The translations under genes and the position numbers were made by a program. Source: Bacteroidales bacterium (lineage in GTDB: Bacteria; Bacteroidota; Bacteroidia; Bacteroidales; WCHB1-69). From it: 64,000 bases of DNA. The notes under the pieces are model-generated. The model ran no database searches and was not told the origin of the DNA. It saw only the letters and a program-made list of their open reading frames with translations. The stretch spans positions 5,760 to 69,759 of the forward strand of contig JAFZIP010000010.1 in NCBI GenBank assembly GCA_017554325.1, read 5' to 3'. This document shows, piece after piece, positions 47,194 through 55,959 of the stretch. Position 1 is the first letter of the stretch. Each line of letters begins with the position of its first letter.

Positions 47194-47667
47194 TTACCGC
47201 AGGGTGTTGACGACCGAAGGTGTCCACGCTTTCAGGAATTCGGACACCTTTGCCTCGCTGTAGCCTTTTCCTTCCTCCAGATAGGCAGAATTCTGAATAT
47301 GGATAGGCTTTCCTGAAGCATCCAAAATCACGAACACAGGAAATCCGAAGCGAGCCGGGTTGCCCAGGTATTTCATCGCTTCAGGGTTCTTGTTCTCCCG
47401 CGACCAGTTGACATGGATATAGACGAAATTCTCCTGGATAATATCATGGACCAGCGTGTCGCTTTCCGCAAACGCCGCAAAGCGCAGGCACCAGGGGCAC
47501 CAGTTGCCACCCACCTGGCAGAGCACGTATTTGTTCTCCGCCGCCGCCTTCTTCACAGCAGTGTTGATCTGCTGCATGGCATCCGCCTTGTCATCGTAAA
47601 TATTCTGCTGCGCCGACAGTTGCAGCATTGCCAGCAGGGTAAAAGTCAATAGGATAATCTTTTTCAT
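47194..47667 (-). CDS. Thioredoxin-fold protein (secreted, CPWC motif).
   Basis: The ATG at 47667 gives the signal peptide MKKIILLTFTLLAMLQLSAQ. The redox motif is VGGNWCPWCLRF. A TAtcTTTG box (complement of 47690-47697) lies upstream. Confidence 0.75.
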   Translation of the reverse strand: MKKIILLTFTLLAMLQLSAQQNIYDDKADAMQQINTAVKKAAAENKYVLCQVGGNWCPWCLRFAAFAESDTLVHDIIQENFVYIHVNWSRENKNPEAMKYLGNPARFGFPVFVILDASGKPIHIQNSAYLEEGKGYSEAKVSEFLKAWTPSVVNTLR

Positions 47668-47744
47668 AATACATAGTATAAACGCGGGGCAAAGATACTT
47701 CTTTTTTATTTTTGCGTCCATTCGGTAATAAGAAGAAAAAAACG

Positions 47745-47752
47745 TATTTTTG
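47745..47752 (+). promoter_or_regulatory. -7 box, TAttTTTG.
   Basis: Exact match 22 nt upstream of the hicB ATG at 47774. Confidence 0.5.
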
Positions 47753-47773
47753 CACAAACAATTACATATAGAA

Positions 47774-47989
47774 ATGGATTATACTATTATTATACAAAAA
47801 AATGAAAGCGGTTGGTACACTGGTCAGTGCGAGCAGGTGCCAGAAGCCATTTCTCAAGGGGAGACACTTGAGGAATTGAAAGAAAACATGGCAGATGCCA
47901 TCAAAATGGTGATTGAATACAAAAAAGAAGAAACCAGAAAACAATATTTTGGGAAAAGATTTTTCCGCCGCCGTGTCGCCGTACTATGA
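47774..47989 (+). CDS. hicB: HicB-family antitoxin (UPF0150).
   Basis: MDYTIIIQKNESGWYTGQCEQVPEAISQGETLEELKENMADAIKMVIE is the classic HicB N-terminal domain pattern. It overlaps the next gene by ATGA. Confidence 0.8.
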   Translation: MDYTIIIQKNESGWYTGQCEQVPEAISQGETLEELKENMADAIKMVIEYKKEETRKQYFGKRFFRRRVAVL

Positions 47990-48180
47990 AACGCATGCTA
48001 TTAATAAAGCATTTAACCGCGAACAACTGTGTATTGCTCCGTGAAGGTAAAAAACACAGTCTGTATAAGAACATGTCTAATGGCAAGTTCACAGCAGTTC
48101 CGAGACATCCAGACATTCAAGAAATTACAGTAAAAAAGATCTGCAATCAATTGGACATTCCAATATCAAAGATTAACTAA
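47986..48180 (+). CDS. hicA: HicA-family mRNA interferase toxin.
   Basis: 64 aa. The pattern L..L...GC.L.REGKKHSLY......KFTAVPRHPDIQEITVKKICNQLDI is the YcfA/HicA pattern. Confidence 0.75.
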   Translation: MKRMLLIKHLTANNCVLLREGKKHSLYKNMSNGKFTAVPRHPDIQEITVKKICNQLDIPISKIN

Positions 48181-48484
48181 TCAACCCGAATTTTTCACCA
48201 AACCCCTATAGCGTATAGAAACAGAATAAACTTTTTAACATATTGACATAAAGCGTTTTCGCTTTTCTTTGCACAACCGGAATCTGGACAATTTCGAATC
48301 ACTACGCAAGAAAGGATAAACGCTCACGAGTAATCGTGGGCTTTCTTGTTTGTAGTGATAGGTCCGTCCAGAACCTTGGTTGTAAACATGAAGTTCACGA
48401 TTCTTTTTATATTTGGAATTGAAAAGCGAAAATGGCTTATAACCAACTGAAATTCAATTAGTACAAATATAAAAATCAAAAAAA

Positions 48485-50600
48485 ATGAAAAAGATCTCCC
48501 TTGTTTTCCTTTTCCTGATGATGCTTTGCGGGATAATGGCGCAAAGTCCCGAACAATTCTCGTATCAAGCAGTGGTTCGCAATGCCAACAACACCTTGGT
48601 CGCTGGCACACAAGTGGGCGTACGTGTGAGCGTGCTACAGGGCACCGCCGCCGGAGCTCCCCGTCTATGTGGAAACCCACGCGGTGACCACGAACAGCAA
48701 CGGCCTGATGATTTTGGCGATAGGGGACGGAACAATCCAGAATGGCATGTTCTCAGACATTGACTGGGCTGATGGACCATATTTCCTCAAAACCGAAATT
48801 GACCCCGATGGCGGCAGCAACTATACCATCACCAGCACCCAGCAGTTGTTGAGTGTGCCTTACGCGTTGTACGCCAAGACTGCAGGTAACGCTTTCAGCG
48901 GCGACTACAACGATTTGACCAACACGCCCGACATCCCTACGGTTCCTACAAACGTCGGTGCTTTCACCAATGACGCAGGTTATCTCACCTCCTACACCGA
49001 AACCGACCCGACGGTACCAGCATGGGCGAAAGAAGCCAACAAACCGGCCTACAGCTATTCGGAAATTGCCAATACCCCCACTATTCCTACCGTTCCTACA
49101 AACGTCAGTGCTTTCACGAACGACGCGGGCTATCTCACCTCCTACACCGAAACCGACCCGACGGTACCGGCTTGGGCGAAAGAAGTCAACAAACCGGCCT
49201 ATAACTATTCAGAAATCGCCAACACTCCGACTATCCCGACAGTGCCCACCAACATAAGTGCTTTCACTAACGATGCCGGATACCTCACCACCTACACCGA
49301 AACCGACCCGCAATTCACTGCTTGGGACAAGGACTATAATGACCTGATAAACAAACCCACAATTCCCACTATTCCTAATAACGTAAGCACGTTTACTAAT
49401 GACGCCGGCTACATCACCGCACAAGACCTCCAGACTATTCCCTCTGTCCCAACCAATGTGAGCGCCTTTGCCAATGATGCCGGATATATCACCTTGGATT
49501 CTATTCCTGCCATTCCCACTGTCCCTACCGAGGTGAGCGTCTTCCATAACGATGCTGGCTACATCACCAGCATTGTTCTCGACAGCATCATGTCCAGTTA
49601 CATCGCCGGGATGCAGGCGCAGATCGACAGTCTGAAAGGAGTGATTGACAGTATGGAAGCAATTCCTGTGCCTGGCGTAAATACGGCGCAACTCCCGACA
49701 GTGACCACCGATGTGGTGACCGTTATTTCCAGTACCACGGCCACCAGCGGCGGAACGGTGACAAGCCCCGACGGCACTCCCGTATTGAGTCGCGGTCTCT
49801 GCTGGAGCCAACACCAGAACCCTACCATCGATGACAATGTGGCAATAGCCGGTTTGGGACAAGGGCAGTTCTCTGCTACTATGACCGGTTTGACCGCTGA
49901 CACATTATACTATGTGCGGGCCTTTGCCGTGACTGCCCAAGGAGTGGCATACGGTCAACCGCGCACCTTTGTCTCCGGTAACCCCAACGCCGTGATGGTG
50001 ACGGTGCATTTTGTTAGTTCCGACACTTCCATTGCTATGGTGAACCAAACGGATACTACGGTCATCTACGGAAGCACCATTTCTTTTCCTGGAATCACTG
50101 GATTATCCGGCTGGATAGTGGATTACTGGGTTGCGGAAAATGACACGACCACCCATATTTCCCCGTTAGATAATGTCACCATTACAAGCGAAATCACCTA
50201 TTATGCCCATTTCAAAGATAACAACGTGTATGTGAGATTCCCTGGAGCAGATGATGAGAATACTTGGAAAAATCTATCTAATAATATCAGTGTAGCAAAG
50301 AACACAAGCTTTGAATACGATAATATAGTATTTAACTGGCAAAATGATGGATCTGCTCAAGATATTTCTGGTACTATTAACTATTATGTACCATATATAA
50401 ATAGTTCAATTGTAACAACTAATATCAAGATACCTTCTGATAAACAAATTACAGGTATATATTCATACGCAAATGGATGGTTACCTGATAATGCAAGAGT
50501 TGAATTTGTACAAACATTAAGTGACGGAAAAGAATATAAAATATTAGTAAATGGTGATAGAAAAACAATCTTTGGAATAAAACTTAGTGATAATGAATGA
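48485..50600 (+). pseudogene. Fibre-like secreted repeat protein, interrupted by a +1 frameshift in a C4 tract (48659-48662).
   Basis: ORF 48485..48763 carries the signal peptide plus FSYQAVVRNANNTLVAGTQVGVRVSVLQGTAAGAP. ORF 48669..50600 continues with VYVETHAVTTNSNGLMILAIGDG...DIDWADGPYFLKTEIDP...LLSVPYALYAK. Removing one C from CCCC joins them in frame. Downstream are SAFTNDAGY(L/I)T repeats, an Fn3-like domain and a Listeria-Bacteroides-type repeat. Confidence 0.75.
48935..49570 (+). repeat. Coding tandem repeats: two 150-bp units, then shorter units of about 75 bp.
   Basis: The 150-bp units start at 48941 and 49091 (PTVPTNV.AFTNDAGYLTSYTETDPTVPAWAKE.NKPAY.YSEIANTPTI). The core P.VPTNVSAFTNDAGY occurs 6 times. 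Confidence 0.8.
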
Positions 50601-50659
50601 TTAATATTAACAACAGCAGCAGTTATTTACCGTATTATTCACATTAAAATTCGATAAAT

Positions 50660-51850
50660 ATGAAAGTGACACGTATTATTCATCCAGTCGGACAAGGCGG
50701 TTTTTACACTGAAACATTCTCCGATGACCAACAGGAAGCGACGTTTGTCTATGATTGCGGAGGATTTGATAATGCCCAAAAGAAGATGAACAGCTATTTG
50801 GATTGCTTTCTGTCCAATAAGAAACCAAAAAAGAAAATAGAGGCCGTCTTTATTTCCCATTTTCATGCAGACCATATCAATGGATTGCAATACCTTCTCG
50901 AGAATGCTGAAGTGAAATATCTGTTTTTACCTCAGTTATCCGAGGATGTTATGTTAGAAGCACTTGTCTATAACTATTGCTTGACAAGGAGCAACAAGTT
51001 AGTCAATGATTTCTTGATAAGCTTGTATAATGGTAAAGTTCGCTTCGGTTCAAACAGAGCAAGAACAAGGATCATACAAATAGAGTCTGTGGATGATCAC
51101 ATTCTCCCAGATGATCTACATTCGGAATCGTTCTATAACAACAACACTGAATTTAATGCATGGGATTGGCGAAAAAAGAAAGTTGTTGATTTGTCAACGG
51201 TTGAAACCCTTTCTGCAAGCACTGTACTTCAATACTGTAGCTGGCTGTACATACCTTATAATTCTAAAGTGCGTCCCGCTAAGGAAACCGATTTGAAGAA
51301 AAAATTAAGTAAAATGTTGGGAACTGAGATTACGGTAGAAAACTTGCCATTATTGATTGAAAAATATACAGTAGAAGCTTGCAGAGAAATCTACAAAAAA
51401 GTATTTGGCTCGAATCAGAACCACACTTCCATGATTTTGTTTTCCGGCACAATAGAAAATGTTAAGATTTTTCATTGTGAGGATATCTCTAATCACCAAG
51501 ATGATGAGAATTGGTTATATTATAAAAACAATAGACATCTGAATCTAAATAATCCAAACATGCTTTATACTGGCGATTATGAGCCAAATCGTAGAGTGGG
51601 TTGCATGTGGTATTACTCTAAGTTGTGGAATACAATCGCTACCATCCAAATTCCGCACCATGGTTCCCAAAACAATTATGATGAAGAACTCTACAAAAAC
51701 CCATCACGAGGCATTGTCTCGGTCGGGAATAATAATTCTCATCATCACCCTAATGTTGACACGTTGATAAAGATTCAAAATCAAGGTTGCTATCCTGTAA
51801 TAGTTACAGAAGACAAAAGCTCCATGAAAATATATCAATATTTGTTATAG
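50660..51850 (+). CDS. MBL-fold metallo-hydrolase, ComEC/Rec2-type beta-lactamase domain (stand-alone, cytoplasmic).
   Basis: The motifs are VYDCGG, ISHFHADHINGL (HxHxDH), and LYTGDYEP...IQIPHHGSQNNYDEELY...IVSVGNNNSHHHPN, which matches the ComEC C-terminal domain pattern. It has no TM segments. It is AT-rich relative to its surroundings. Confidence 0.7.
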   Translation: MKVTRIIHPVGQGGFYTETFSDDQQEATFVYDCGGFDNAQKKMNSYLDCFLSNKKPKKKIEAVFISHFHADHINGLQYLLENAEVKYLFLPQLSEDVMLEALVYNYCLTRSNKLVNDFLISLYNGKVRFGSNRARTRIIQIESVDDHILPDDLHSESFYNNNTEFNAWDWRKKKVVDLSTVETLSASTVLQYCSWLYIPYNSKVRPAKETDLKKKLSKMLGTEITVENLPLLIEKYTVEACREIYKKVFGSNQNHTSMILFSGTIENVKIFHCEDISNHQDDENWLYYKNNRHLNLNNPNMLYTGDYEPNRRVGCMWYYSKLWNTIATIQIPHHGSQNNYDEELYKNPSRGIVSVGNNNSHHHPNVDTLIKIQNQGCYPVIVTEDKSSMKIYQYLL

Positions 51851-51860
51851 AAGACTTGAC

Positions 51861-51885
51861 AGGGCGCGGCCGCGGGCCGCGCCCT
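51861..51885. terminator. GC-rich perfect hairpin after the MBL gene.
   Basis: AGGGCGCGGCC-GCG-GGCCGCGCCCT is followed by TTTGGGTTG. It starts 11 nt after the stop codon. Confidence 0.6.
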
Positions 51886-51909
51886 TTGGGTTGTGTGTGG
51901 ATTAACGCT

Positions 51910-51949
51910 GGGGGTTCCGCCAGCGGTTAGAGACACGGTTCATGTTGGA
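51910..51949. repeat. Junction module J, left-most copy (no leader attached).
   Basis: The sequence is gggggttccgccagcggttagagacacggttcatgttgga. It matches 52751-52790 and 53642-53681. Confidence 0.75.
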
Positions 51950-51989
51950 GGTTCCGCCGCCTGCAAAAATACGGGGTTAATGTTTGGGG

Positions 51990-52012
51990 TTCCGCCGCCA
52001 ATGGCGGCGGAA
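51990..52012 (+). repeat. H hairpin 1.
   Basis: TTCCGCCGCC-AAT-GGCGGCGGAA, with flanks ATGTTTGGGG and TGGTGGG. Confidence 0.8.
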
Positions 52013-52044
52013 TGGTGGGCGTGTGGTGCTGGTTGGGTTGGGGG

Positions 52045-52072
52045 TTCCGAACGATGCGTGCATCGTTCGGAA
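52045..52072 (+). repeat. H hairpin 2.
   Basis: TTCCGAACGATGC-GT-GCATCGTTCGGAA, with flanks GGTTGGGGG and TGGTGCG. Confidence 0.8.
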
Positions 52073-52100
52073 TGGTGCGTGTCTGGAGGGCAATGATAAA

Positions 52101-52156
52101 ATGGGCGGCGGCAGAAGGTGATTGATAATTTGCACGTCCCAACCGCCGCCGCCCAT
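52101..52156. repeat. 12-bp inverted repeat with a 32-nt spacer, followed by a T9 run.
   Basis: ATGGGCGGCGGC ... GCCGCCGCCCAT, followed by ATTTTTTTTT. It lies between H2 and the inverted H3. Confidence 0.7.
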
Positions 52157-52183
52157 ATTTTTTTTTGCGATGATGCTGCACCA

Positions 52184-52207
52184 TTCCGCGCGACATGTCG
52201 CGCGGAA
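52184..52207 (-). repeat. H hairpin 3 (inverted orientation).
   Basis: The plus strand reads CACCATTCCGCGCGACATGTCGCGCGGAACCTCC. It lies 19 nt downstream of the GIY-YIG stop. Confidence 0.8.
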
Positions 52208-52225
52208 CCTCCAGCGTTCCCCGAG

Positions 52226-52582
52226 TCACCTCTTTGTTAGCTCGTCCATCACCCGTTTCACCTGGTCACTCCAGGATTCCGGCTTTTCGCAAAATCCATT
52301 TTCACTAACCAATTCCCTCCATTGCGGATTACGGGCATTGATGAGAGCGAGTTTTTCCGAACGCCGCATGTTTTTCATTTGATTCTCTCTCCGAATCGCG
52401 GAATTGTAGTCAGGGAAAGCCTCGTAATAGACACAATATTCACAATTGTATTTATCGGTGAATGACCCTTTGTAAAAGTGTCTTTTATGTTGCGATACAC
52501 GTTTGATGATATCAACGGTACAACCTACGTAAAGCACATTGTGATGCTTGTTTGTCATGATGTAAGTGAAACCAGATTTCAT
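52226..52582 (-). CDS. GIY-YIG nuclease family protein (small, stand-alone).
   Basis: FTYIMTNKHHNVLYVGCTVDIIKRVSQHK...YYE.F......AI.RENQMKNMRRSEK is the GIY-YIG / UPF0213 pattern. Confidence 0.8.
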   Translation of the reverse strand: MKSGFTYIMTNKHHNVLYVGCTVDIIKRVSQHKRHFYKGSFTDKYNCEYCVYYEAFPDYNSAIRRENQMKNMRRSEKLALINARNPQWRELVSENGFCEKPESWSDQVKRVMDELTKR

Positions 52583-52610
52583 AGTTTAAAAGGTTTTGTT
52601 ATGGTTGCTG

Positions 52611-52618
52611 CAAAGATA
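52611..52618 (-). promoter_or_regulatory. -7 box TAtcTTTG (minus strand).
   Basis: The reverse complement of caaagata lies 29 nt upstream of the GIY-YIG ATG at 52582. Confidence 0.5.
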
Positions 52619-52650
52619 CAACACCCCAACCGTTTTTCAAAGGTTTGGGC

Positions 52651-52750
52651 AAAATTATTTTTATCATAATAATCAGTGTTTTAGAAAATTACTCTGTGTA
52701 AAATTAAGAATTGATTGTTAACGGGTAGTGATTGATTTGGGAAAAATGTT
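52651..52750 (-). repeat. Leader module copy A (pseudo 3' end of mpg plus its downstream region).
   Basis: It is 61/61 identical to copy B over tactctgtgtaaaattaagaattgattgttaacgggtagtgattgatttgggaaaaatgtt. On the minus strand it reads ..NIFPKSITTR-stop. Confidence 0.85.
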
Positions 52751-52792
52751 GGGGGTTCCGCCAGCGGTTAGAGACGCGGTTTGTGTTGGAGG

Positions 52793-52815
52793 TTCCGCCA
52801 GCAGATCTGGCGGAA
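52793..52815 (+). repeat. H hairpin 4.
   Basis: TTCCGCCAG-CAGAT-CTGGCGGAA, with flanks GTGTTGGAGG and TGGTGGGG. It is preceded by J module 52751-52790. Confidence 0.8.
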
Positions 52816-52989
52816 TGGTGGGGATGGGATATTATTTTATCGTAAGTGGCTATAACGGAGAAAATTGATTTTTTTCATGATGACATCCGCCGTCTAAAAA
52901 ATATTTGTACTTTTGCGGTGTCGTTTTACCATACAGAGCAGGTAACGAAGACTGTCAGCGTCGATGTTTTTGACAGTGACGAACAATAT

Positions 52990-53017
52990 AAGACCGAGGT
53001 TTCACTTCGGTCTTTTT
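52990..53017. terminator. Hairpin overlapping the stop codon of the 148-aa gene.
   Basis: AAGACCGAGG-TTTCA-CTTCGGTCTT, followed by TTT on the plus strand. The stop codon (complement of 53002-53004) sits in the loop. Confidence 0.4.
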
Positions 53018-53448
53018 ATTATGTCAAAGGCCGAAAGCAACCACTTTTTCGTTTTCCCATCATCACTTTTTTCCACCGCCACGATAAATCGGAATGTCTT
53101 ACTTTCAAACACTTTTTTTTGACCGTCTGACTTCTTCAAGTTGAAATTGCCGAATTGAACAACAATAGGGATGAAATCCTCCACATTAAATCCCAGTTTG
53201 TTAATATCAATTTCGTGTTTGTCAATAATGTGGGCCAACCCATATCCCCTGTGCTTGATTGGGTCTGAGACCTCACCCCAAACAATGTCAATATCACCAA
53301 TATCACTACGATGCAGCGCCGCAATACATTCGCCATTCATTTTTTCACGAAGAAATCTAATGGCTTCCTTTGGCTTTCCTGCAAATTGCCTGTACACAGG
53401 ACCATATTTTCCAGTTTCAACATTTGTTTCTTCAATAGTTGTTTTCAT
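53002..53448 (-). CDS. Small stand-alone protein resembling the barnase/EndoU/colicin-E5/RelE-like (PBECR-type) nuclease modules of polyvalent conjugative-element proteins.
   Basis: 148 aa. The pattern YGPVYRQFAGKPKEAIRFLREKMNGECIAALHRSDIGDIDIVWGE......GYGLAHIIDKH is one I associate with N-terminal modules of large Bacteroides ICE/phage polyvalent proteins. The assignment is from memory only. Confidence 0.4.
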   Translation of the reverse strand: MKTTIEETNVETGKYGPVYRQFAGKPKEAIRFLREKMNGECIAALHRSDIGDIDIVWGEVSDPIKHRGYGLAHIIDKHEIDINKLGFNVEDFIPIVVQFGNFNLKKSDGQKKVFESKTFRFIVAVEKSDDGKTKKWLLSAFDIIKRPK

Positions 53449-53501
53449 AATTGATTATAATTTGTTTGGAATTATACATATTGTTAATGATACATTAACG
53501 G

Positions 53502-53509
53502 CAAAAATA
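53502..53509 (-). promoter_or_regulatory. -7 box TAttTTTG (minus strand).
   Basis: The reverse complement of caaaaata lies 54 nt upstream of the ATG at 53448. Confidence 0.45.
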
Positions 53510-53540
53510 CATCACAAAAAACTTTTGGCTAGAGTATTGC

Positions 53541-53641
53541 GAAAATAATTTTCAGTGTAATAATCAATGTATTAGCATTTTACTCTGTGTAAAATTAAGA
53601 ATTGATTGTTAACGGGTAGTGATTGATTTGGGAAAAATGTT
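53541..53641 (-). repeat. Leader module copy B.
   Basis: See copy A. It is followed by J module 53642-53681. Confidence 0.85.
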
Positions 53642-53683
53642 GGAGGTTCCGCTGGCGGTTAGAGACGTGGTTTGTTTTGGAGG

Positions 53684-53706
53684 TTCCGCCGCCAAAGGCG
53701 GCGGAA
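53684..53706 (+). repeat. H hairpin 5.
   Basis: TTCCGCCGCC-AAA-GGCGGCGGAA, with flanks GTTTTGGAGG and TGGTGGTG. Confidence 0.8.
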
Positions 53707-53812
53707 TGGTGGTGACACAGCGGTGCGTTTGTGGTGTTTCGCGGCGGGTTGGTTCAGGGACTCGGCGCATGTGTGTCGCGCGCCGCGCCCCATCGCACAG
53801 GCCAGCCCGCAC

Positions 53813-54016
53813 CCAGGGGTTGACACCCCTGGTTACAGATATGTAACGCCTACGGCGTTAGTGCTGACAGCGTTGACGTTGTCGGAGATTGAACCTGTCG
53901 ATGGTGACTGTGCTTGTCGAAGTCACCGGCAATACTAAGCAGGTTTAACCGGTATTCCTGCCACCAGTCCAACGCCGTAGGCGTTGCAGATTATAGCCAG
54001 AGATGTCAATCTCTGG
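53813..54016. repeat. 204-bp nested imperfect palindrome: two inverted double-hairpin modules around a central hairpin.
   Basis: The left module lies at 53813-53860: CCAGGGG-TTGACA-CCCCTGG, then an 11-nt spacer, then TAACGCC-TAC-GGCGTTA. The right module at 53970-54016 is its inverted copy with compensatory stem changes: CAACGCC-GTA-GGCGTTG, then a 10-nt spacer, then CCAGAGAT-GTCA-ATCTCTGG. The central hairpin GGTGACT...AGTCACC lies at 53903-53927. Confidence 0.75.
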
Positions 54017-54130
54017 GATTGTGGTATATGATGGCCCCGTGTGCGTAATCGCGGCGCGGGAGCCGCGTGCACCGAAGCATAATGTTTGCCCGCCGCGAAA
54101 CGCCCATCATTATCCACCAACCCACCACCA

Positions 54131-54149
54131 TTCCGCGCTCCGCGCGGAA
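54131..54149 (-). repeat. H hairpin 7 (inverted orientation).
   Basis: The plus strand reads CCACCACCATTCCGCGC-TCC-GCGCGGAATCTCCACC. Confidence 0.8.
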
Positions 54150-54240
54150 TCTCCACCGATGAATAGTATTCAGAGAACACCCAAGGGCGCGGACGTGGGG
54201 CTGCGCTCTTTTTGTTTTGTGTGGGGGTTCATGCTGGAGG

Positions 54241-54263
54241 TTCCGCCGCCGTTGGCGGCGGAA
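54241..54263 (+). repeat. H hairpin 6.
   Basis: TTCCGCCGCC-GTT-GGCGGCGGAA, with flanks ATGCTGGAGG and TGGTGGGTGG. Confidence 0.8.
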
Positions 54264-54309
54264 TGGTGGGTGGCTTGATAAGGCGAAATAAGCTAAATAA
54301 GCTAAATAG

Positions 54310-55218
54310 TTAGTTTTTTTTTGGTCTAAGCTCCATGATTTCCTCGCTGCTCAGGCCGGAAATGCGTACTATAGTCTCTATTGCGATACGTTCCGCAATC
54401 ATGTTTAGTGCTAGTTGGCGCTTTTCTGCCATTTTCCCTTCATTCATCCCCTTTTCCATACCTTTCTCAAACCCCTCTTCTAGGCCGTCTTCGCGGGCGC
54501 AGATAATGGCACCTTGCACATCTTTGTACTCCAAAACACTCTTCTTGTATTCTTTTCGTTCCATGTTGGTTAGTTTTGTTATCCTGCATTCCTCTATGAA
54601 CTTTCGGAAGATGCCACGCTCCTCTGCGCCGTAGTCTTGATTGGTGCTACTGCCGATGGAGGTGAGCAGTTCGAGCCACCTGCGCATGGGGGCATTGTCC
54701 AAAGTCTTGTCTTTAACGGCTGCAAATTCACACAATTCGATGAAAAAAAAGGTGGTTTTCTCGCTGAAAATTTTGTCGGTCTCATCTTTGAGCATAACCT
54801 TGTGGAAATAATGGTCATTGCCTCTGAACTCCGGTGCGTTGTAGTCCAGCAGGTTGAAGGAATAGACGGAGGGGATGGCGTAGTCGTTTTCGCCTTTTTC
54901 CATCTCCCTGCTGATCACCCTGCTCACGTACGAGATGATTCTGTCGGCGAAGAAGGGCTGGCGGGCCCGCTGCATCTCGATGATGAATCTGTCGCCGTTT
55001 TGGTTTTCGCAATAGATGTCGAAAATCACCCTCTTGTCTTCCGGCCTCTCGCCGAACATCTCTGTCTGCAGGAAGGTGATGTCGGTGATGATACCGACTT
55101 CATCGGAAATGGAGGAATTGAGGAAGTCGATGAGGAGGTCTTTGTTGTTCTCGGAGGCGAAGATCCGCTTGAAGCCGAAATCGGACAGCGGATCGAAAAA
55201 TATCATGTCTTTCTTCAT
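54310..55218 (-). CDS. Rpn-family recombination-promoting nuclease / putative PD-(D/E)XK transposase.
   Basis: The ATG at 55218 gives MKKDMIFFDPLSDFGFKRIFASENNKDLLIDFLN. Further in is ..RVIFDIYCENQNGDRFIIEMQ (the D..E.Q/K core), the typical pattern of this family. The longer ORF-track start would overlap the promoter box. Confidence 0.8.
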   Translation of the reverse strand: MKKDMIFFDPLSDFGFKRIFASENNKDLLIDFLNSSISDEVGIITDITFLQTEMFGERPEDKRVIFDIYCENQNGDRFIIEMQRARQPFFADRIISYVSRVISREMEKGENDYAIPSVYSFNLLDYNAPEFRGNDHYFHKVMLKDETDKIFSEKTTFFFIELCEFAAVKDKTLDNAPMRRWLELLTSIGSSTNQDYGAEERGIFRKFIEECRITKLTNMERKEYKKSVLEYKDVQGAIICAREDGLEEGFEKGMEKGMNEGKMAEKRQLALNMIAERIAIETIVRISGLSSEEIMELRPKKN

Positions 55219-55239
55219 AGTAAAATGTTTTAGGTTGCC

Positions 55240-55247
55240 CAAAGATA
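55240..55247 (-). promoter_or_regulatory. -7 box TAtcTTTG (minus strand).
   Basis: The reverse complement of caaagata lies 22 nt upstream of the ATG at 55218. Confidence 0.5.
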
Positions 55248-55280
55248 CAACCCCAAAACATTCTTGTCAAGAGCTTTTTG

Positions 55281-55380
55281 ATAAATATTTTTAATGTAAT
55301 AATCAGTATGTTAGAAATTTACGAGGTGTAAAATTAAGATTTGATTGTTAACGAGTGGAGGCAGATTTTGGAAAAATGTT
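55281..55380 (-). repeat. Leader module copy C: the genuine 3' end of mpg (last 11 codons) plus about 65 bp downstream.
   Basis: It matches the 61-bp core of copies A and B at about 50/61 positions. Homology ends at the same nucleotide (AAAAATGTT) in all three copies. Confidence 0.85.
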
Positions 55381-55959
55381 CCCGGCTTTTATTAAAAACC
55401 TATACGGCAGCAGGGCATCCTCACCCGCGTAGTCCACGCCGATGCGCGGGGTGATCTCAATTTGATTATCAGGAATCTGGAGGCCGCGGTCTTCGATCCA
55501 AACCGTGTCGCTCGTAAGCGGGCAGCCATTGTCGGCCACCGCAAGACCCAGCAGCTTGCTCACCTTGCCTGGGCCGGAACCGATGTCGTGCGACATCCGG
55601 CTCTTGCCCGTGCGCCGCAACATCAACTCCTCGCCGTGCGTGGGGATGATGCCGCGGATGAGCACCGCGTCAGGGACATCCTCTTCGTTGGTCACGAAGT
55701 TGAGCATGTAGTGCATGCCATAGCAAAGGTACATGTAGGCTACCCCGCCCTCGTGGTACATCATCTCGTTGCGGCGCGTGCGCCTGCCTCCGTAGGCATG
55801 CGAAGCCTTGTCTGTCGTGCCCTTGTACGCCTCCACCTCCGAAATGATGCCACCTGCCAGCTGTCCGTCCTTCATGGTGAACAGATACTTGCCCAACAAG
55901 TCGCGGGCGATGGCCAACACATCATGTCCTAAAAAATACGATTTTTGCAGCCTATTCAT
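55348..55959 (-). CDS. mpg: DNA-3-methyladenine glycosylase (Mpg/AAG family).
   Basis: The ATG at 55959 gives MNRLQKSYFLGHDVLAIARDLLGKYL. The motifs are EVEAYKGTTDKASHAYGGRRTRRNEMMY..GG.AY.YL.YGMHYMLN and LIRGIIP. Confidence 0.85.
   Translation of the reverse strand: MNRLQKSYFLGHDVLAIARDLLGKYLFTMKDGQLAGGIISEVEAYKGTTDKASHAYGGRRTRRNEMMYHEGGVAYMYLCYGMHYMLNFVTNEEDVPDAVLIRGIIPTHGEELMLRRTGKSRMSHDIGSGPGKVSKLLGLAVADNGCPLTSDTVWIEDRGLQIPDNQIEITPRIGVDYAGEDALLPYRFLIKAGNIFPKSASTR

Follow-up and report, generated by a model that had tools for sequence, protein, structure and literature searches.

A variable islet between mpg and a thioredoxin-like gene in uncultured Bacteroidales, with an array of small nuclease genes between shared 5' modules and 3' hairpins

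We analyzed a 64,000-nt stretch of DNA (the window; contig JAFZIP010000010.1 of assembly GCA_017554325.1, positions 5,760 to 69,759) from a Bacteroidales bacterium of the WCHB1-69 lineage. The subject of this report is the interval between mpg, which encodes a 3-methyladenine DNA glycosylase, and a thioredoxin-like gene (trx). Next to mpg, this interval carries three co-directional nuclease genes (Rpn, PBECR1 and GIY-YIG), each preceded by a copy of one 5' module, called the leader here, and followed by hairpin-forming DNA; leader, gene and hairpins together are referred to as a cassette. Loci from other assemblies are denoted by L numbers, and a caret (^) marks a junction.

Architecture of the array

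Read from mpg toward the far end, the array consists of the following features.

55348-55959, minus strand: mpg (3-methyladenine DNA glycosylase; PF02245/TIGR00567), last 11 codons (55348-55380) encoded by the leader
55219-55380, minus strand: leader C, 5' module of the Rpn cassette; distal part 55254-55380 conserved; own promoter, with -7 box TATCTTTG at 55240-55247
54310-55218, minus strand: Rpn-family PD-(D/E)XK nuclease, cargo 1 (PF12784, 4.7e-53; TIGR01784)
54231-54273, plus strand: H hairpin, 3' end of the Rpn cassette; stem TTCCGCCGCC/GGCGGCGGAA
54183-54230, plus strand: T module, a GC hairpin and then a T/G-rich run, terminator-like on the plus strand
53716-54158, unstranded: GC-rich long palindrome of ~440 nt, 58% GC, flanked by inverted H hairpins; fold z -9.9
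53642-53715, plus strand: J_B (53642-53681) and H hairpin (53682-53711); leader junction at 53641/53642
53449-53641, minus strand: leader B, 5' module and promoter of the PBECR1 cassette; -7 box ~53509
53002-53448, minus strand: PBECR1 (barnase/EndoU/colicin-E5/RelE-like) nuclease, 148 aa, cargo 2 (PF18809, 1.5e-19)
52751-53001, minus strand: 3' part of the PBECR1 cassette, with a 176-nt conserved 3' region (52826-53001), H (52791-52820) and J_A (52751-52790)
52583-52750, minus strand: leader A, 5' module and promoter of the GIY-YIG cassette; -7 box ~52618
52226-52582, minus strand: GIY-YIG nuclease, cargo 3 (PF01541, 2.2e-13)
51910-52225, unstranded: 3' end of the GIY cassette, with an inverted H doublet (180-nt palindrome 52037-52216), H (51988-52017), a degenerate J and a terminal J (51910-51949)
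51851-51909, plus strand: far-end module shared with the MBL terminator, AGCGTTAATCCACACAC... and a GC hairpin

A repeat search recovered the leader as a 127-nt direct-repeat family with three copies in the window: A (52624-52750), B (53515-53641) and C (55254-55380). An initial annotation of the sequence had placed three leader copies here, and its counts were reproduced: the 61-nt cores of A and B are identical (61/61), and A agrees with C at 50/61 positions. A 28-nt leader core occurs three times in the 64 kb, with no occurrence expected. The three copies begin their homology at one shared nucleotide (AAAAATGTT^), as had been proposed, and this proved to be a real, fixed junction. Each cassette gene was also confirmed to have its own TAnnTTTG promoter on the minus strand, with the boxes at 52618 (GIY-YIG), 53509 (the 148-aa nuclease-like gene, which is PBECR1) and 55247 (Rpn), ~25-35 nt before the start codon. 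Because such a box stands upstream of each start codon, the leader repeat is promoter plus upstream DNA and not a transcribed leader.

When all leaders were aligned, their distal ~95 nt (AACATTTYTCC...CTGATTATT) proved common to cassettes with four unrelated cargos, and the promoter-proximal part was cargo-specific and moved with its own gene wherever that gene stood in the array. Leaders of Rpn type grouped together, both where Rpn comes first (window, L002 and L011) and where it comes second (L013). The leader can be read in a frame that ends ...PKSxTTR-stop. This pseudo-frame was ruled out as a real open reading frame (ORF), as an upstream ORF exists for copy B only and crosses the GC palindrome. 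The leaders of L033 and L034 carry the same pseudo-frame with no mpg upstream, and for this reason we take the reading to be incidental.

The 3' modules are built from two elements, H and J. The H hairpins (GGRGRTTCCG-stem-CGGAATGGTG, that is, GGRGR-TTCCG-stem-CGGAA-TGGTG) number 6-7 copies in the window, all of which lie within 51988-54268 and fold as perfect 9-12 bp stems with z of -4 to -5. At least six versions of the stem apex were found, each fully complementary, and the flanks and base are conserved. J modules occur at 51913, 52754 and 53645 only, again with none expected. The J/H modules described earlier beside leaders A and B, as well as the leader-less terminal J at 51910-51949, were thus found. 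No H hairpins outside islets were present in ~150 kb of flanking DNA (the rest of the 64-kb window and the flanks of L007, L008 and L010). J and H together form a tandem pair of a ~37-nt motif, GACRYGGTTnnnGTTGGRGGTTCCGCC, in which J is a second copy of the outer flank motif of the hairpin; this arrangement resembles repeated protein-binding sites at element ends. The T module has homologues in the far-end module (51861-51909) and at the far end of L002.

The GC palindrome at 53716-54158 looks MITE/REPIN-like. It folds as a single long hairpin with two inverted motifs like Acido-Lenti-1 (RF01687), at 53813-53859 on the plus strand and 53971-54016 on the minus strand. The minus-strand copy scored 36.3 bits, and the plus-strand copy was recognized by eye only; an Rfam scan of the whole window at the gathering threshold gave no matches, and the copy in L002 (1931-1976) scored 38.4 bits, above the gathering score. 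Acido-Lenti-1 was described only from Acidobacteria/Lentisphaerae, and it was reported to adjoin KLIKK protease genes in Tannerella (2026 preprint). Here the motif seems to belong to a mobile palindromic element and not to be a free-standing small RNA.

The three cargo genes differ in GC content (PBECR1 0.39, GIY-YIG 0.42, Rpn 0.48). Rpn covers PF12784 model positions 1-225/229 and scores 109.8 bits against TIGR01784 (cutoff 52.1). Its catalytic motif, D67...E81-x-Q83, is intact in the window and invariant in alignment A3, in which homologues 83-96% identical show 4- and 16-residue indels in the C-terminal EG-rich repeat region (EGFEKGMEKG...). A hypervariable 4-residue repeat is a feature of the internal RpnS antitoxin region (PMC10400941), and the repeat variation seen here would fit a toxin/antiphage defence role.

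Beside the PBECR1 gene, a TAnnTTTG box (52908) and a strong intrinsic terminator (52990-53014) delimit a possible plus-strand RNA of ~90 nt (52908-53014), which would be convergent with the gene and overlap the PBECR1 stop codon. Conservation of this region is 99-100% in L002 and L011, and L011 has kept it despite deletion of the PBECR1 ORF; the putative transcript could be an antisense or antitoxin RNA.

Variation among relatives and the fixed junction

Related loci were compared in ~10 cases, all of them metagenome contigs, and the host lineage consists of uncultured ruminant-gut Bacteroidales. Two of these loci, L010 and L031, are empty sites in which the thioredoxin-like gene follows mpg after 0-11 bp. 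Since trx lies at 47194-47667 in the window, the DNA between 47.7 and 55.4 kb is a 7.7-kb insertion-prone islet. The check on relatives suggested with the initial annotation was therefore informative, as both empty sites and islets that differ in the number, cargo and order of cassettes were found. The mpg-trx intervals of the filled loci contain the following.

L002 (red-deer metagenome-assembled genome): Rpn and PBECR1, no GIY-YIG cassette
L011: Rpn and a 3' remnant of the PBECR1 cassette only
L013/L015: hairpin palindrome, leader-ORF6N and leader-Rpn, in that order
L008/L009: ORF6N, PBECR1, a different GIY-YIG and HicAB
L007: H/J hairpins and HicAB only

The entire 841-nt GIY-YIG cassette is missing from L002, L011 and L008. 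The 3'-end block of the GIY cassette (51910-52225) lies directly after mpg in L013/L015, where it is 91% identical. Between the window and L002, the backbone genes are 64-75% identical and mpg 86%, whereas the PBECR1 ORF with its 3' region is 99-100% identical, the T/H modules 99%, the GC palindrome 95% and Rpn 92%. In the comparison with L011, identity to the window is 99-100% for the backbone, but 96% for Rpn and 91% for leader C. The PBECR1 gene is 99% identical to the window copy in L002 and 97% in L008. These contrasts between cassette and backbone indicate that the cassettes have their own histories. Co-transfer of the 3' half of mpg with the islet was also considered, and a sliding identity window against L002 gave no sharp break.

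Misassembly of the array is unlikely. The order Rpn then PBECR1 (L002, a different species), the GIY-MBL join (L004, 100%) and the mpg-leader join (L001) recur in independent assemblies, and the identical A/B stretch is just ~62-100 nt long.

The joints of the array were found at one position with many partners. The flanks of H/J type all end ...CGGAAYCNCC and are followed by A(A/G)C(A/G)T.... The leader start was joined to the mpg tail (window, L011 and L002), to J (window A/B and L013), directly to H (L002), to H with different stems (L033 and L013), which makes three types of H stem, and to a mini-hairpin (L034). In L002, J is missing at the J_B position, and H there abuts the leader directly. 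The terminal J of the GIY cassette was joined to the far-end module (window and L004) and to a leader start (L005), and H was joined to the leader, J or T. A palindromic "full site", in which hairpin flanks stand head to head around AACGTT, was present in none of the loci.

The leader was also found before Rpn homologues with 83% and 93% protein identity (alignment A3) at two loci without mpg, L033 and L034. The unit lies between an esterase gene and NAGLU in L033, and between a 3-hydroxyacyl-CoA dehydrogenase (3HCDH) gene and a helix-turn-helix (HTH) gene in L034. Nucleotide homology to the window begins at 55378/55380, the start point of A, B and C, and an H hairpin follows the Rpn gene in both. 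In L033, the unit is enclosed by inverted J/H ends (TTAACGTT^GGAGG...CCTCC^AACGTTAA) next to a GC palindrome like 53716-54158, which lies upstream of the leader (~9680-9730); in L034, the unit lies between a mini-hairpin and an H hairpin. Occurrence of the module at loci unrelated to mpg had been named in advance as evidence against the insertion model of the initial annotation, and such loci exist, yet the module is low in copy and not a generic dispersed repeat.

Two short contigs come from sample ERZ28654131: L003 (869 nt) is an almost complete circular permutation of the PBECR1 cassette (891 nt), and L005 (794 nt) of the GIY cassette (841 nt). In each, the cassette's own 3' J is joined to the leader start at CC^AAC, and a gap of 22 nt (L003) or 47 nt (L005) remains before the circle would close. 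Tandem duplication, excision as circles or cycles in the assembly could each have produced these contigs, and we regard them as a lead only.

The mpg side of the islet behaves differently from the inner joints. Proteins 91-98% identical to the mpg product of the window diverge almost only after ...LLPYRF, and the tails include LWIEKN, LWIGK, LIKTGNPFL, LIKTGKPIQ, LIKTGNPIADCR and LIKAGNISPKSTTTR, with LIKAGNIFPKSASTR in the window. Native or empty-site alleles end ...RFLWIEKN, ...RFLWIGK or ...RFLIKTGNPIADCR before the stop. In L029, from a more distant species, there is no islet and mpg ends ...IKTGNPIADCR-stop, which marks this tail as native. The native 3' end of mpg (L029 and L008) is a small hairpin (ACCGGCAA...TTGCCGGT), inside which the islet is joined. 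Foreign DNA starts six codons before the native mpg stop in the window. The islet joins the native tail after GGGAAC in the window, after GGGAACCCG in L013 and after GGGAAACCGAT in L007, and follows the intact stop in L008, so that the single attachment nucleotide in mpg that had been postulated did not hold. Nor did the description of copy C as the genuine mpg end, because native ends differ from it and C merely overlaps the last 11 codons, or that of A and B as pseudo 3' ends of another mpg allele, because the leader lies away from mpg in L013/L015, L033 and L034. In L013/L015, mpg ends ...GNPFL-stop, and two leaders are located 0.3 and 1.4 kb downstream.

Across near-identical mpg proteins (P0001-P0027), at least eight different C-terminal tails were observed, set by the downstream DNA. 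Judging by these sequences, this core DNA-repair enzyme seems to tolerate repeated replacement of its last 5-15 residues.

The remainder of the islet and its border are as follows.

47668-51850, plus strand (opposite to the array): rest of the variable islet, with a HicB-like gene (47774-47989), HicA (47986-48180), a surface-protein gene (48485-50600) and an MBL-fold hydrolase gene (50660-51850)
47194-47667, minus strand: thioredoxin-like gene, conserved right-hand islet border (tblastn 96%), directly downstream of mpg in empty-site genomes

HicAB is common to the window, L007 and L008. The surface-protein gene (plus strand) encodes a signal peptide and has Listeria-Bacteroides repeat and fn3-like matches; it starts at an ATG at 48485 and changes frame near 48670-48760 (a 92-aa ORF and then a 643-aa ORF), apparently through a frameshift, pseudogene formation or sequencing error. 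Its version in L008 is 262 aa. The MBL-fold gene (plus strand), which is AT-rich and was not in any other islet examined, matches PADLOC LmuA (1e-14), the PADLOC RTasMBL model (described as DRT) and NCBIfam Avs1a, and a weak match to the Anti-Pycsar Apyc1 Pfam family is also on record.

Possible origins of the cassettes

We give an even chance to the reading that these are mobile promoter-gene-hairpin cassettes with nuclease/defence cargo, recombined at the hairpin flank by an enzyme supplied in trans. The mpg-trx interval would then be a variable islet whose mpg-proximal half is a head-to-tail array of self-contained cassettes. Each cassette would comprise a ~165-nt 5' module, of which the AT-rich distal ~95 nt start AACATTTYTCC and are followed by a cargo-specific Bacteroidetes promoter; one small nuclease/defence gene (Rpn, PBECR1 or GIY-YIG here, ORF6N/PDC-S05 elsewhere); and a GC-rich 3' module with at least one H hairpin, often extended by J. 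Such cassettes may be gained, lost, duplicated, reordered and swapped between species at one point just outside the hairpin flank (...CGGAAYCNCC^AAC...), with the hairpin module serving as a recombination site that is attC-like in logic. We infer that recombination at this junction is site- or structure-specific. The 5' module would stem not from mpg but from the DNA that natively lies upstream of Rpn in a mobile unit, and the 11-codon foreign tail of mpg would have arisen only from the joining of the Rpn unit inside the small hairpin at the native mpg end.

Several observations weigh against this reading. Neither an excised circle nor an empty/filled pair has been demonstrated for L033/L034, and L003/L005 could be assembly-graph cycles. 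PBECR1 stands without a leader in L008; the L011 deletion begins midway through the GC palindrome and ends in the PBECR1 terminator; the second leader of L013 carries an extra 11-14 nt; and the junction of islet and mpg tail falls on three different nucleotides. From these non-canonical junctions it is clear that ordinary illegitimate and homologous events also act. RecA-dependent unequal crossing-over between the identical cores of the leader (62 nt) or J (26 nt) could alone duplicate or delete cassettes. No recombinase was present between mpg and trx in the related islets (gene tables of L007-L010). The leader core matched only once, at the same locus in L002, among 185,579 GTDB representative genomes, although the pattern used in the collection scans would miss diverged variants such as those of L013 and L034. 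Leader and J gave 0 matches in IMG/VR viral contigs, a blastn search with the full array found nothing relevant among PLSDB plasmids or INPHARED phages, and the evidence base amounts to ~10 loci from metagenome assemblies.

Other searches gave little beyond the loci above. In the JGI metagenomes, the leader core matched only once, by chance and within an unrelated element (L006). In IMG/VR, 12 isolated single matches to the H pattern are assumed to be chance (~17 specified bases and a variable gap), and a search for Rpn in viral contigs returned a 34%-identity relative only. In L006 (1458-1479; 1560-4440), the repeated motif GTTTAACAATCAAAATYTTT, which resembles the TTAACAATCAAATCTTAA stretch of the leader, precedes many start codons of an unrelated Bacteroidetes-like mobile element.

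The main alternative, less likely but serious, is an ordinary defence/toxin hotspot without dedicated machinery, into which DNA enters by transformation, conjugation or transduction and is fixed by homologous recombination through the conserved flanks (mpg, trx and the promoter and hairpin/terminator modules that the cassettes share). Repeats would then drive unequal crossing-over, and the H, J and palindrome elements would be unrelated REPIN/MITE-like parasites or terminators in dispensable intergenic DNA. The islet does have a conserved core gene on either side, and it varies in content as known defence hotspots do, with cargo of defence or toxin-antitoxin (TA) type (Rpn, PBECR1, GIY-YIG, HicAB, the LmuA/Avs1a-type MBL, and ORF6N, which corresponds to PADLOC PDC-S05). 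Breakpoints of non-canonical type exist, J direct repeats flank the GIY cassette indel, the junctions of L003/L005 are the expected product of unequal crossing-over in the leader or J core, and H doublets form long, REPIN-like hairpins. However, this explanation does not account for the same ~95-nt distal 5' module, with an identical first nucleotide, on four unrelated genes; for a leader start joined to at least five barely homologous left partners (including the mpg tail GCCGGG, the mini-hairpin and H stems); or for the Rpn unit at two unrelated loci with the same boundary. Moreover, the hairpins are missing from the ~150 kb of surroundings, unlike genome-wide REPs.

If an enzyme for the mobile cassettes is sought within the array itself, Rpn ("recombination-promoting nuclease") is the only mobilizing candidate encoded in cis. 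In this alternative, which we consider improbable, leader, Rpn and hairpin form an autonomous element: Rpn cuts at or near the hairpin flank, the unit is copied or joined into hairpin-bearing sites, and the PBECR1, GIY-YIG and ORF6N cassettes are non-autonomous derivatives that keep both ends. The sole cassette found at unrelated loci is the Rpn unit, hairpin-bounded in both L033 and L034. Rpn is present in 4/4 arrays with leader-type cassettes (window, L002, L011 and L013), and the islets without Rpn (L007 and L008) have no leader-bearing cassette, but this correlation is based on six islets. The catalytic D...ExQ motif is invariant, and the family was first proposed as DNA-mobilizing, with independent insertions of rpnC at one enterobacterial site (PMC5350276). 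On the other hand, characterized Rpn proteins are non-specific nucleases that act as toxin/antiphage systems and contain their own antitoxin, and the authors judged them "not autonomously mobile" (PMC10400941); the 4-residue repeat variation fits a defence role; and no target duplication or empty site is known for L033/L034. It is likewise doubtful that the array represents an undescribed class of Bacteroidales mobile cassettes, in which recombination takes place at a structure-defined site (CC^AAC in the hairpin flank), needs no tyrosine/serine recombinase and has the Rpn of the founding cassette as its mobilizing enzyme.

The model of the initial annotation, serial site-specific insertion inside the mpg 3' end with each insertion carrying or duplicating an mpg end, drew on the overlap of copy C with the mpg stop, on the frame ending ...PKSITTR-stop kept by A and B and on the end nucleotide common to all three copies, but it is very improbable and is already refuted by L013, L033 and L034, as the module lies apart from mpg in L013/L015 and, with the same pseudo-frame, at the mpg-less L033 and L034, native mpg ends have no similarity to it, and the mpg-islet junction varies between strains. 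Of that proposal and its companion, integron-like accretion, the cassette-like array stood, and insertion at one mpg attachment site did not.

If the mobile cassettes truly move at the hairpin junction, they would constitute a compact gene-capture platform that spreads nuclease/defence genes between species of gut Bacteroidales and, having none of the usual recombinases, would be missed by integron-, rAID- and integrase-based searches. The Rpn family, long annotated as "putative transposases" without known ends, gains a concrete testable unit, which has a fixed 5' boundary and ends in a 3' hairpin, occurs in three independent genomic contexts and has cargo-swapped relatives. Were Rpn the driver, no rpn gene before it would have had defined element ends, and no earlier integron-like platform would have relied on a nuclease-family protein. 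At minimum, the locus is a defence hotspot of unusually regular modular grammar, as well as a cautionary case in which a core gene, mpg, acquires varied C-terminal tails from downstream DNA.

Comparison with known systems

Domain searches of the window bear on all of the following comparisons. Pfam scans covered 38/45 long window ORFs (the seven left out include a 2723-aa ORF at 9899-18070), and no tyrosine/serine recombinase or DDE transposase domain was present among those 38, apart from the "putative transposase" label of Rpn; to this extent, the reported absence of a recombinase or transposase was borne out. Neither a RAYT/IS200-like gene nor an HUH protein was found in the scanned ORFs. 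Rolling-circle (IS91/ISCR/Helitron-like) and IS200/IS605-type elements are characterized by an HUH transposase, asymmetric ends with a 3' (sub)terminal hairpin and a lack of target duplication; the cassettes show asymmetric ends and a 3' hairpin.

Core-genome defence hotspots share with the islet its conserved flanks (mpg and trx), the empty allele and a defence/TA content that differs between close strains. Cassettes with shared 5'/3' modules and a fixed junction are not general there. As for the Rpn family (YhgA-like, PF04754/PF12784), cargo 1 is a full-length member with the catalytic motif and length variation of the RpnS-type 4-residue repeat, and the family is known for its sporadic distribution, enrichment in defence islands and long-suspected mobility. 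The difference lies in the reproducible 5' boundary and 3' hairpin at three unrelated loci here, as no discrete ends are described in PMC5350276 or PMC10400941.

The hairpins are reminiscent of REP/REPIN elements, being palindromic units with conserved flanks whose inverted doublets form long hairpins (52037-52216, 53716-54158 and, in L007, 10618-10708, 90 nt). Unlike these, H hairpins are confined to islets and not dispersed in many copies (64-kb window; flanks of L007, L008 and L010), and the H/J elements coincide exactly with the borders of gene cassettes.

Arrays of recombinase-associated acquired interbacterial defence type 1 (rAID-1; Ross et al. 2019) occur in the same order, Bacteroidales (10.1101/471110; PMC12247911). 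Two features define them: the array begins at its 5' end with a XerD-like tyrosine recombinase (>44% identity to BF9343_RS08045), and at least two co-directional genes with a GC content of 41% or less follow downstream (10.1101/471110). By description, the two systems agree in short, co-directional conflict genes, in intergenic repeats "reminiscent of integrons" and in horizontal spread. As to GC content, the three co-directional genes here stand at 0.39 (PBECR1), 0.42 (GIY-YIG) and 0.48 (Rpn). The present array is headed by mpg, however, with no XerD-like recombinase domain in the 38 scanned ORFs, and it carries nuclease/toxin cargo versus the orphan immunity genes of rAID-1.

The likeness to integrons and to CALINs, which are clusters of attC sites without an integrase, concerns the layout: small, mostly co-oriented genes stand head to tail, each followed by a hairpin site with conserved flanks and a variable center; the boundary falls at a fixed nucleotide beside that site; and presence, absence and order vary per cassette between strains. 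The lack of an adjacent integrase is CALIN-like. The attC sites are imperfect palindromes with R'' (RYYYAAC) and R' (GTTRRRY) boxes and extrahelical bases, and their crossover point is G^TT. In contrast, the H hairpins have short, GC-rich stems that are perfectly paired, with neither extrahelical bases nor R''/L''/L'/R' boxes, and they are joined at CC^AAC and not at G^TTRRRY. By sequence reading, no RYYYAAC/GTTRRRY pair brackets the hairpins, in agreement with the earlier remark that the junctions do not resemble attC R-boxes. The array also has no IntI, attI or Pc, its cassettes each possess their own promoter and a ~95-nt conserved 5' module, which integron cassettes do not have, and its host belongs to the Bacteroidales. 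The array is thus a variant of the cassette-array kind that belongs to none of the integron/CALIN, rAID-1 and REPIN families.

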